Source: Dehalococcoidia bacterium (GTDB taxonomy: Bacteria > Chloroflexota > Dehalococcoidia > Dehalococcoidales > UBA1222). From it: a stretch of 28,926 nt of DNA. The stretch lies in NCBI GenBank assembly GCA_009779655.1, contig WRDV01000001.1, positions 1 to 28,926 on the forward strand. The letters are read 5' to 3'. Positions within the stretch are counted from its first letter, which is position 1. Each line of letters starts with the position of its first letter. Below are positions 25,167 to 25,401 of the stretch, piece after piece. Below the pieces are notes generated by a model. That model searched no databases and had not been told where the DNA came from. It worked only from the letters and a program-made list of their open reading frames with translations. Made by a program: the position numbers and the translations under genes.

Positions 25167-25195
25167 TTGACAGCGCAGTTACTACATGCCATAAT
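25167..25195 (+). promoter_or_regulatory. Sigma70-type promoter of the riboswitch/ATPase transcript
   Basis: TTGACA (25167-72)-17 nt-CATAAT (25190-95) with TGn extension. Confidence 0.75.
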
Positions 25196-25229
25196 AGCCG
25201 CTAAGCTATTTGCACTACACAACAATAGA

Positions 25230-25316
25230 TACTGAGCAGGCGATAAACCTTTTTGGGTTTATGGGGCTGGGTCGCAGGGCGGCAGCAGATGATTGATGCA
25301 CATCTGTGGGACAGTA
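25230..25316 (+). ncRNA. NiCo (czcD) metal-sensing riboswitch aptamer
   Basis: UACUGAGCAGGC...GGCAGCAGAUG...CACAUCUGUGGGACAGUA matches the conserved NiCo core as I recall it. Four helices can be built: P1 UACUG/CAGUA, P2 AUAAACC/GGUUUAU, P3 GCUG/CGGC, P4 CAGAUG/CAUCUG. Confidence 0.88.
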
Positions 25317-25341
25317 AAATGTTCCATAGGTGTGTTTTTTT
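25299..25341 (+). terminator. Riboswitch-controlled intrinsic terminator
   Basis: 15-bp stem (25299-25313 with 25320-25334, three G-U pairs), 6-nt loop, U7 at 25335-25341; its 5' arm is the 3' strand of aptamer P4 and part of P1. Confidence 0.88.
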
Positions 25342-25401
25342 ATTCACCGGAACATAACAAAGTGCCATAAGAGCTATCTATAAAACGCCATAAGGCGCGT
25401 A

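Follow-up and report, generated by a model that had tools for sequence, protein, structure and literature searches.

Riboswitches of the NiCo or czcD class (Rfam RF02683) are represented by the structure of an RNA from an Erysipelotrichaceae bacterium (4RUM; Furukawa et al., 2015, as cited in PMC7689651 and PMC11672702). In the solved structure, the metal ions are coordinated by G46 and G47, which belong to the conserved stretch G45–G47, and by G87 and G88 (Eba numbering; PMC7689651). As described for this class, the terminator is formed without metal, and transcription reads through upon metal binding (PMC7689651). The czcD riboswitch binds Fe2+, Co2+ and Ni2+ each at about 1 µM, and of these only iron does so within its physiological range (PMC9389577). 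Among the genes under the control of such RNAs is Ccel_1038 of Clostridium (Ruminiclostridium) cellulolyticum, an 'MgtA-like' ATPase that is positively regulated by a czcD riboswitch (PMC9389577).

In this study, a stretch of 28,926 nucleotides of a Dehalococcoidia genome (hereafter the window), in which a NiCo riboswitch had been predicted in front of an ATPase gene, was analysed. The window is a whole contig, and the genome to which it belongs comprises 0.91 Mb and is 75% complete and 1% contaminated. The best explanation of the locus, to which we assign a probability of roughly 0.85, is a horizontally transferred unit of promoter, NiCo switch, terminator and P2-like pump gene, in which binding of metal would induce read-through into the pump gene. 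The features of the locus and the related aptamers discussed below are collected in Table 1.

Table 1. Positions of the features of the window and of NiCo-type aptamers in related genomes (window positions unless a locus is named)
Feature	Position	Strand	Remarks
fhs (formate–tetrahydrofolate ligase)	23361..25142	+	Resident Dehalococcoidia gene, left flank
Sigma-70-type promoter	25167..25195	+	TTGACA, 17-nt spacer, TG-extended CATAAT
NiCo (czcD-class) riboswitch aptamer	25222..25316	+	P1–P4 four-way junction; Rfam RF02683
Intrinsic terminator	25298..25341	+	Stem 25298–25313/25320–25335, loop 25314–25319 (6 nt), U7 25335–25341
P-type ATPase, P2-like	25402..27999	+	865 aa; Pfam domains Cation_ATPase_N, E1-E2_ATPase, Hydrolase, Cation_ATPase_C
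IS630-family (DDE_3) transposase 3'-end remnant	27957..28238	+	Pfam DDE_3 positions 99–144 of 146, E = 3.2e-11
NiCo aptamer and terminator of G001	L168:9905-10030	-	59.6 bits; precedes CDF ORF 8976–9854 (-)
Compact NiCo-like aptamer	L164:1501-1577	-	
Compact NiCo-like aptamer	L166:1501-1578		
Compact NiCo-like aptamer	L167:953-1030		
Compact NiCo-like aptamer	L165:1508-1576		

Focusing on the marker genes of the contig, the encoded AspRS is 87% and 84% identical to those of termite-gut Dehalococcoidia MAGs, with the next matches, at about 80%, coming from Dehalococcoidales, and the FTHFS protein is 88% identical to that of the same-genus genome G001 and 83% identical to that of G003. Positions 19949–25141, containing tig, aspS and fhs, are collinear with contig C27 of G001 at 77–78% DNA identity. 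Moreover, one public termite-gut metagenome run contains 89% of the words sampled from the region. AspRS, FTHFS and synteny together place the host in a termite-gut genus of Dehalococcoidales, an assignment that holds on these sequence comparisons and agrees with the original prediction of a Chloroflexota chromosome rather than a Firmicutes one.

Leader RNA and its competing folds

The promoter matches the consensus at 11 of 12 positions, and the transcript should start near 25202. When the NiCo model of Rfam was searched, a full-length match (model positions 1–96 of 96) was obtained with a score of 71.4 bits and an E value of 6.7e-15, which is 34 bits above the gathering score of 37 bits. The search of the whole genome returned the same NiCo result as that of the window, and with all Rfam families applied to both strands of the window, nothing besides NiCo was found over its gathering score; in particular, yybP–ykoY gave no match in the window. 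With a covariance model made from ATPase-linked aptamers, the score of the aptamer is 92 bits.

The helices P1, P2, P3 and P4 all pair on the model alignment, with a G–G opposition in P2 (25242/25265) as the single non-standard pair. The two GGG stretches at 25269–25271 and 25308–25310 align to the invariant junction guanines of the family, and both sets are likewise invariant in an alignment with 15 relatives. No structural departure of the window aptamer from the NiCo family was seen. The aptamer is located in the 5' leader, 86 nt upstream of the P-type ATPase start, and the promoter, the four-helix aptamer and the terminator with its U7 tract were all recovered at the positions that had been predicted for them.

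The terminator stem comprises 16 pairs including the closing G–U pair and 15 pairs without it, the latter being the length originally given, and the hairpin alone has a folding energy of −24.6 kcal/mol. The 5' arm of the terminator covers the 3' strand of P4 (25302–25307), the junction guanines at 25308–25310 and the two initial bases of the 3' strand of P1 (25312–25313), so that aptamer and terminator cannot coexist. Since the two folds are mutually exclusive, a transcriptional ON switch is predicted. For the leader of 146 nt, a folding energy of −50.4 kcal/mol was calculated (z = −4.76; 0 of 200 shuffled sequences were as stable), and its minimum-energy fold is the terminator form. For positions 25222–25345, the aptamer fold alone amounts to −14.2 kcal/mol, compared with −45.2 kcal/mol for the terminator-containing fold. 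As the terminator form is the one of minimum energy, termination would be the default state and the aptamer would need its ligand to win, a predicted logic that matches the published mechanism of the class (PMC7689651).

The terminator was further compared in an alignment of 50 distinct relatives, in which 93.8% of the cells pair and eight of the 16 pairs have changed on both sides; slid controls gave 35–59% pairing. The overlap of the terminator with P4 and P1 and its conservation with compensatory changes in these relatives bear out the mutually exclusive folds and the NiCo-class ON switch that had been proposed from the letters of the window.

In the mechanism that we propose, the 3' strands of P4 and P1 would pair with 25320–25335 when no metal is bound, and the resulting hairpin with U7 would halt the polymerase some 60 nt short of the ATPase start. 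Divalent transition-metal ions at the conserved junction guanines would hold P4 and P1 in place; with the aptamer bound to metal, the terminator would be blocked and RNA polymerase would read into the pump gene. The ligand may be Fe2+, Co2+ or Ni2+, of which Fe2+ would probably be the main physiological signal in the anoxic gut, and the pump would export the excess metal.

The P-type ATPase and the distribution of its switch

The ATPase, for which an alternative start at the ATG at 25417 is possible, scores below every NCBIfam equivalog cut-off, those of the Ca2+ and Mg2+ types included. With the model for P1B heavy-metal ATPases (TIGR01525), the pump type cited most frequently in connection with this riboswitch, the score of 268.7 bits stayed below the cut-off of 346, and no P1B features were found; among the models for P2A Ca2+-ATPases (SERCA/PMR1/LMCA1), the best, TIGR01522, reached 485.8 bits, with its cut-off at 798. 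Among solved structures, the nearest relative is the Listeria Ca2+-ATPase LMCA1. The P2A Ca2+ site is recognized by a Glu of M4 within PEGL, an Asn of M5, and an Asn and an Asp of M6. M4 of the window ATPase reads IPEEFP, and in the alignment with LMCA1 the M5 Asn is replaced by His647 and the M6 Asn by Glu678, Cys685 is added, and only the M4 Glu and the M6 Asp (Asp682) are kept. Among the best 80 of 401 relatives, no variation is seen at E282, E283, H647, E678 or D682, and hardly any at C685. The C-terminal residues, about 17 in number, have no counterpart in the relatives because the frame continues into the IS630 remnant, the native C-terminus and stop codon having been replaced by about 17 codons of the remnant (27946–28238 region).

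These residues bear on what the pump may carry. The switch could be real and yet not serve the export of its ligand if excess Fe2+ induced an MgtA-like Mg2+ importer as compensation, a possibility raised for Ccel_1038 in view of its annotation as an MgtA-like ATPase (PMC9389577), and the scores of the window ATPase below all equivalog cut-offs leave room for such a function. However, the six residues listed above occupy the Ca2+ positions of LMCA1 and SERCA and are conserved throughout the 80 relatives, and a set of His, Cys and carboxylates would suit transition metals better than Mg2+. In addition, CDF and P1B4 exporters are under the control of this RNA elsewhere in the class. We consider Mg2+ import unlikely and retain the export of excess transition metal as the preferred reading.

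Relatives of the ATPase were collected by a scan of one genome per species, which yielded 401 sequences, and the best 80 were kept. Of 20 loci tested, 17 have an Rfam NiCo match immediately in front of the ATPase gene, and the model built from ATPase-linked aptamers places an aptamer directly upstream in 75 of these 80 relatives. The terminator is conserved in nearly all of the aptamer-bearing loci. Of the 76 aptamer-bearing loci scanned, 67 have a promoter-like site (at least nine of 12 positions) no more than 110 nt ahead of P1, and in most loci it lies 36–67 nt upstream of P1. The conservation of promoter, aptamer and terminator with the pump indicates that all four travel as one unit. On the evidence of these loci, this type of cassette is common and widespread in Clostridia, and the window copy is an ordinary member, unusual only in its acquisition by a termite-gut Dehalococcoidia bacterium; the pairing of switch and pump has been published (PMC9389577).

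Several further observations were made among the relatives. Identical pump proteins occur across six Bacillota genera, their aptamers having the same score of 113 bits and the same locus coordinates, and a Sinanaerobacter copy of the pump is nearly identical to that of a Geobacteraceae MAG (L032, L033, L034, L037, L038 and L039; also L047/L051 and L008/L009/L010). Identical pumps across genera imply that the cassette has also spread in more recent times, presumably carried by a mobile element. The five of the 80 pump relatives without an aptamer are L005, L026 and L048 (Ca. Bathycorpusculum), L003 (Holophagales) and L006. Its absence in all three termite-gut Bathyarchaeia copies fits a loss of the bacterial terminator-based switch after transfer to archaea.

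The distribution of the class within Chloroflexota was then surveyed, all counts including the window's genome. In the host family, three of 16 genomes exceed the NiCo cut-off, namely the window's genome, G011 (69.8 bits, in front of the same pump) and G001. At the level of the class, eight of the 151 sampled genomes match NiCo at E ≤ 0.001 and five exceed the cut-off, and in the phylum sample five of 151 genomes are over the cut-off, two of the five matches preceding CDF genes. The window aptamer has the highest score among the NiCo copies found in the Chloroflexota genomes examined. Judging from these samples, the NiCo class is rare in Chloroflexota and the window is not the sole case. The novelty attached to the original prediction was overstated, as NiCo matches over the cut-off were also obtained in four further genomes among 150 sampled from Chloroflexota and in two relatives belonging to the host family. 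In the literature searched, no paper linking a NiCo riboswitch with Chloroflexi was found.

The aptamer and terminator of G001 are 80% identical to those of the window over 115 nt, and the target gene is a CzcD-type cation diffusion facilitator, not an ATPase. Compact NiCo-like aptamers of about 77 nt, scoring 29–35 bits and thus below the Rfam cut-offs, were observed in the sister genus g2 and in G023. They keep the cores GGAACAGGC, GCCGGGC, GGCAG and GGGAC, each followed by its own overlapping terminator, and they precede a different P-type ATPase in three g2 genomes and a CDF exporter in G023. From their sequences, the compact aptamers may represent a Dehalococcoidia subclass that is under-scored by the Rfam model. 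In a further Dehalococcoidia genome, G116, a Moco/tungsten riboswitch (60 bits) adjoins, back to back, a NiCo match of borderline score (38.4 bits) at L173:1260-1392 on the minus strand; the latter may be spurious, since the next gene encodes a short-chain dehydrogenase.

Whether such a switch works in Dehalococcoidia is relevant to a second alternative, according to which the RNA would be inert in this host, a transferred relic with a silent or constitutive pump. In favour of this view, promoter and terminator both belong to the Bacillota type that the donors share, and the three Ca. Bathycorpusculum pump relatives without the aptamer would be instances in which the RNA was lost where it was unworkable. 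However, every conserved aptamer position, the full terminator, the U7 tract and the frame of 865 codons are intact although the DNA has diverged by about 25% from that of the nearest relative, an indication of ongoing selection. Furthermore, G001 keeps a NiCo aptamer and an almost identical terminator before its CDF exporter, and other Dehalococcoidia have NiCo-like aptamers with terminators, so that the host lineage appears to use this switch logic. An inert relic is very improbable on these grounds, and metal-induced read-through in the present host is preferred.

Insertion borders and origin of the cassette

The cassette extends from position 25143 to about 27960 (2.8 kb), between fhs and the IS630 remnant. 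On the left, the similarity to G001 ends exactly at the fhs stop codon (25141/25142), and on the right it returns at 27969–28238 in inverted orientation. The IS630 remnant is 78% identical at the DNA level to the end of the full 346-aa transposase beside fhs in G001, in which the fhs neighbourhood contains, besides this full IS630 transposase, one gene that is MobC/NikA-like and another that is Imm26-like. The content downstream of fhs in G001 and in the window thus indicates a variable island in the genus. The ATPase was not found in the same-genus genomes G001 (91% complete), G003 (83% complete) and G002 (52% complete).

In the ATPase gene tree of 80 sequences, the window ATPase is the sister of a termite-gut Oscillospiraceae sequence (support 99) and lies inside a clade of four termite-gut Oscillospiraceae sequences (support 99). 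The enclosing clade has 11 members and a support of 100, and at least nine of its members are termite-gut MAGs by isolate name; this clade is completed by a Holophagales MAG, three archaea of Ca. Bathycorpusculum and the Dehalococcoidales genome G011. The pump copy of G011 is not the sister of that of the window, the flank of the G011 contig corresponds to the genus-mate G008 at 70–76%, and the cassette is absent in G008. The position of the G011 copy and the lack of the cassette in G008 make at least two separate acquisitions within the family likely.

The GC and skew profile of the cassette (about 46% GC) is no different from that of its flanks, so that composition gives no independent sign of transfer. 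A recent donor was considered and rejected: the nearest sampled relative of the cassette has only 75% DNA identity, which implies that the transfer was not recent and that no donor can be named. The similarity of the aptamer was also set aside as a marker of origin; the identities, 77% to an Oscillospiraceae aptamer versus 80% to that of G001, are uninformative in so short and conserved an element.

The contigs of the Logan assembly of the termite-gut run X1 span 24923–25330 and 27450–28081 with zero mismatches and at a depth of 6–8, as in the flanks. Run X1 is probably the source of the window, and these contigs represent a second assembly and not an independent sample. With both junctions bridged and flanks of the Dehalococcoidia type, a chimera is unlikely.

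The borders, the absence of the pump from the same-genus genomes, the ATPase tree and the bridged junctions uphold the horizontal acquisition that had been suspected. Acquisition of the whole promoter–switch–pump unit from Clostridia-type neighbours is well supported by these comparisons. The donor is proposed to have been a member of the Bacillota of the Oscillospiraceae type, and the landing site an IS630-marked spot just downstream of fhs. That an Oscillospiraceae riboswitch and ATPase were instead mis-joined to a Dehalococcoidia contig in assembly or binning, as might be imagined from the termite-gut Oscillospiraceae affinity of the pump and from the many aptamer cores in the community that are nearly identical but differ in their flanks (up to a depth of 117 in run X2), repeats of a kind that can mislead assemblers, is highly improbable, given that Dehalococcoidia-type sequence flanks the cassette on both sides (fhs on the left and the remnant matching the G001 transposase on the right), that both junctions are crossed without mismatches at a depth equal to that of the flanks, and that a second family member, G011, has its own copy in a context shared with its genus-mate.

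Two observations on the reads may be added. Near-identical copies of the aptamer cores (25231–25276 and 25300–25342) with unlike flanks are present in runs X1–X3 at a summed depth of up to 117, and this high summed depth suggests that NiCo riboswitches are abundant across members of the termite-gut community. The end of the contig (28785–28926) is a repeat with a word depth of about 160–200 in the source run, compared with 6–8 elsewhere, which probably explains the break in the assembly at this point.

Physiological ligand and comparison with known systems

Considering the published binding data and the anoxic gut, Fe2+ would be at least as likely a physiological signal here as Co2+ or Ni2+. 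The rationale originally offered, a lineage relying on cobalt corrinoids and NiFe hydrogenases, has no support in the genome: a NiFe-hydrogenase large subunit was not found in the host genome (75% complete), and the argument was carried over from Dehalococcoides and is not based on the host organism. Two proteins with a B12-binding domain exceed the Pfam cut-off in the host genome. A search for the reductive dehalogenase domain gave no match in this genome, and the same search was silent in control genomes too. FeoB_N matches in the genome were considered as a sign of iron uptake and were discarded, as their frame sizes and the occurrence of a tandem pair on one contig led us to read them as probably ordinary GTPases. 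The host would be one more anaerobe fitting the proposal of Fe2+ as the physiological ligand of the NiCo class.

A wider reading may be outlined, to which we would give somewhat less than even odds. The cassette may be a habitat-bound mobile module against metal overload that crosses phyla and domains in termite guts, its pump may define a class of Fe2+/Co2+/Ni2+ exporters on a P2 scaffold, and NiCo-class RNAs, the compact forms below the cut-off included, may be a main iron-excess sensor of Dehalococcoidia. As part of the same joint and tentative reading, the RNA would be retained only where bacterial termination logic applies. The hosts of the module in termite guts comprise Oscillospiraceae, Dehalococcoidia (twice, separately), Holophagales and Bathyarchaeia.

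In summary, the locus is a well-documented case in which a riboswitch has passed from one phylum to another along with its promoter, terminator and target gene and with clear insertion borders, and NiCo-class switches are seen to reach Chloroflexota, a phylum beyond the Bacillota examples named in the cited papers. The knowledge of the riboswitch class itself is unchanged, and the larger question is that of the substrate of the pump, whose ion site carries His, Cys and Glu.

Compared with the NiCo class as described, the window RNA has the same four-way junction, the same junction guanines, a terminator competing with P4 and P1, a predicted ON logic and a metal transporter downstream. It differs from the studied examples in its host, which belongs to Chloroflexota and not to Bacillota (Erysipelotrichaceae, Clostridium and Listeria), and in the one G–G mismatch of P2. 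As in the case of Ccel_1038, a czcD/NiCo riboswitch precedes a P-type ATPase that is not of the P1B type, and Ruminiclostridium relatives of the window pump are 71–72% identical to it and have the aptamer; judging from these genus-level relatives, Ccel_1038 is a putative orthologue of the window pump. Unlike Ccel_1038, the window copy belongs to a Dehalococcoidia chromosome and has lost its own C-terminal tail, the frame reading through into the IS630 remnant instead. The czcD riboswitch of a Listeria plasmid and its target LMO3448 (PMC9389577, PMC7689651) share with the window the RNA class, the terminator logic and a P-type ATPase as the target, as well as the location on mobile DNA and the proposed role in Fe2+ efflux, whereas LMO3448 is a P1B4 heavy-metal ATPase and the window pump is P2-like with Cation_ATPase_N and Cation_ATPase_C domains. 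Finally, the yybP–ykoY Mn2+ riboswitch of Streptococcus with its P2-type MgtA (Martin et al., 2019, as cited in PMC9389577 and PMC11672702) resembles the window locus as a metal ON switch for a P2-type ATPase exporter, although it belongs to a different RNA family and responds to a different ligand.
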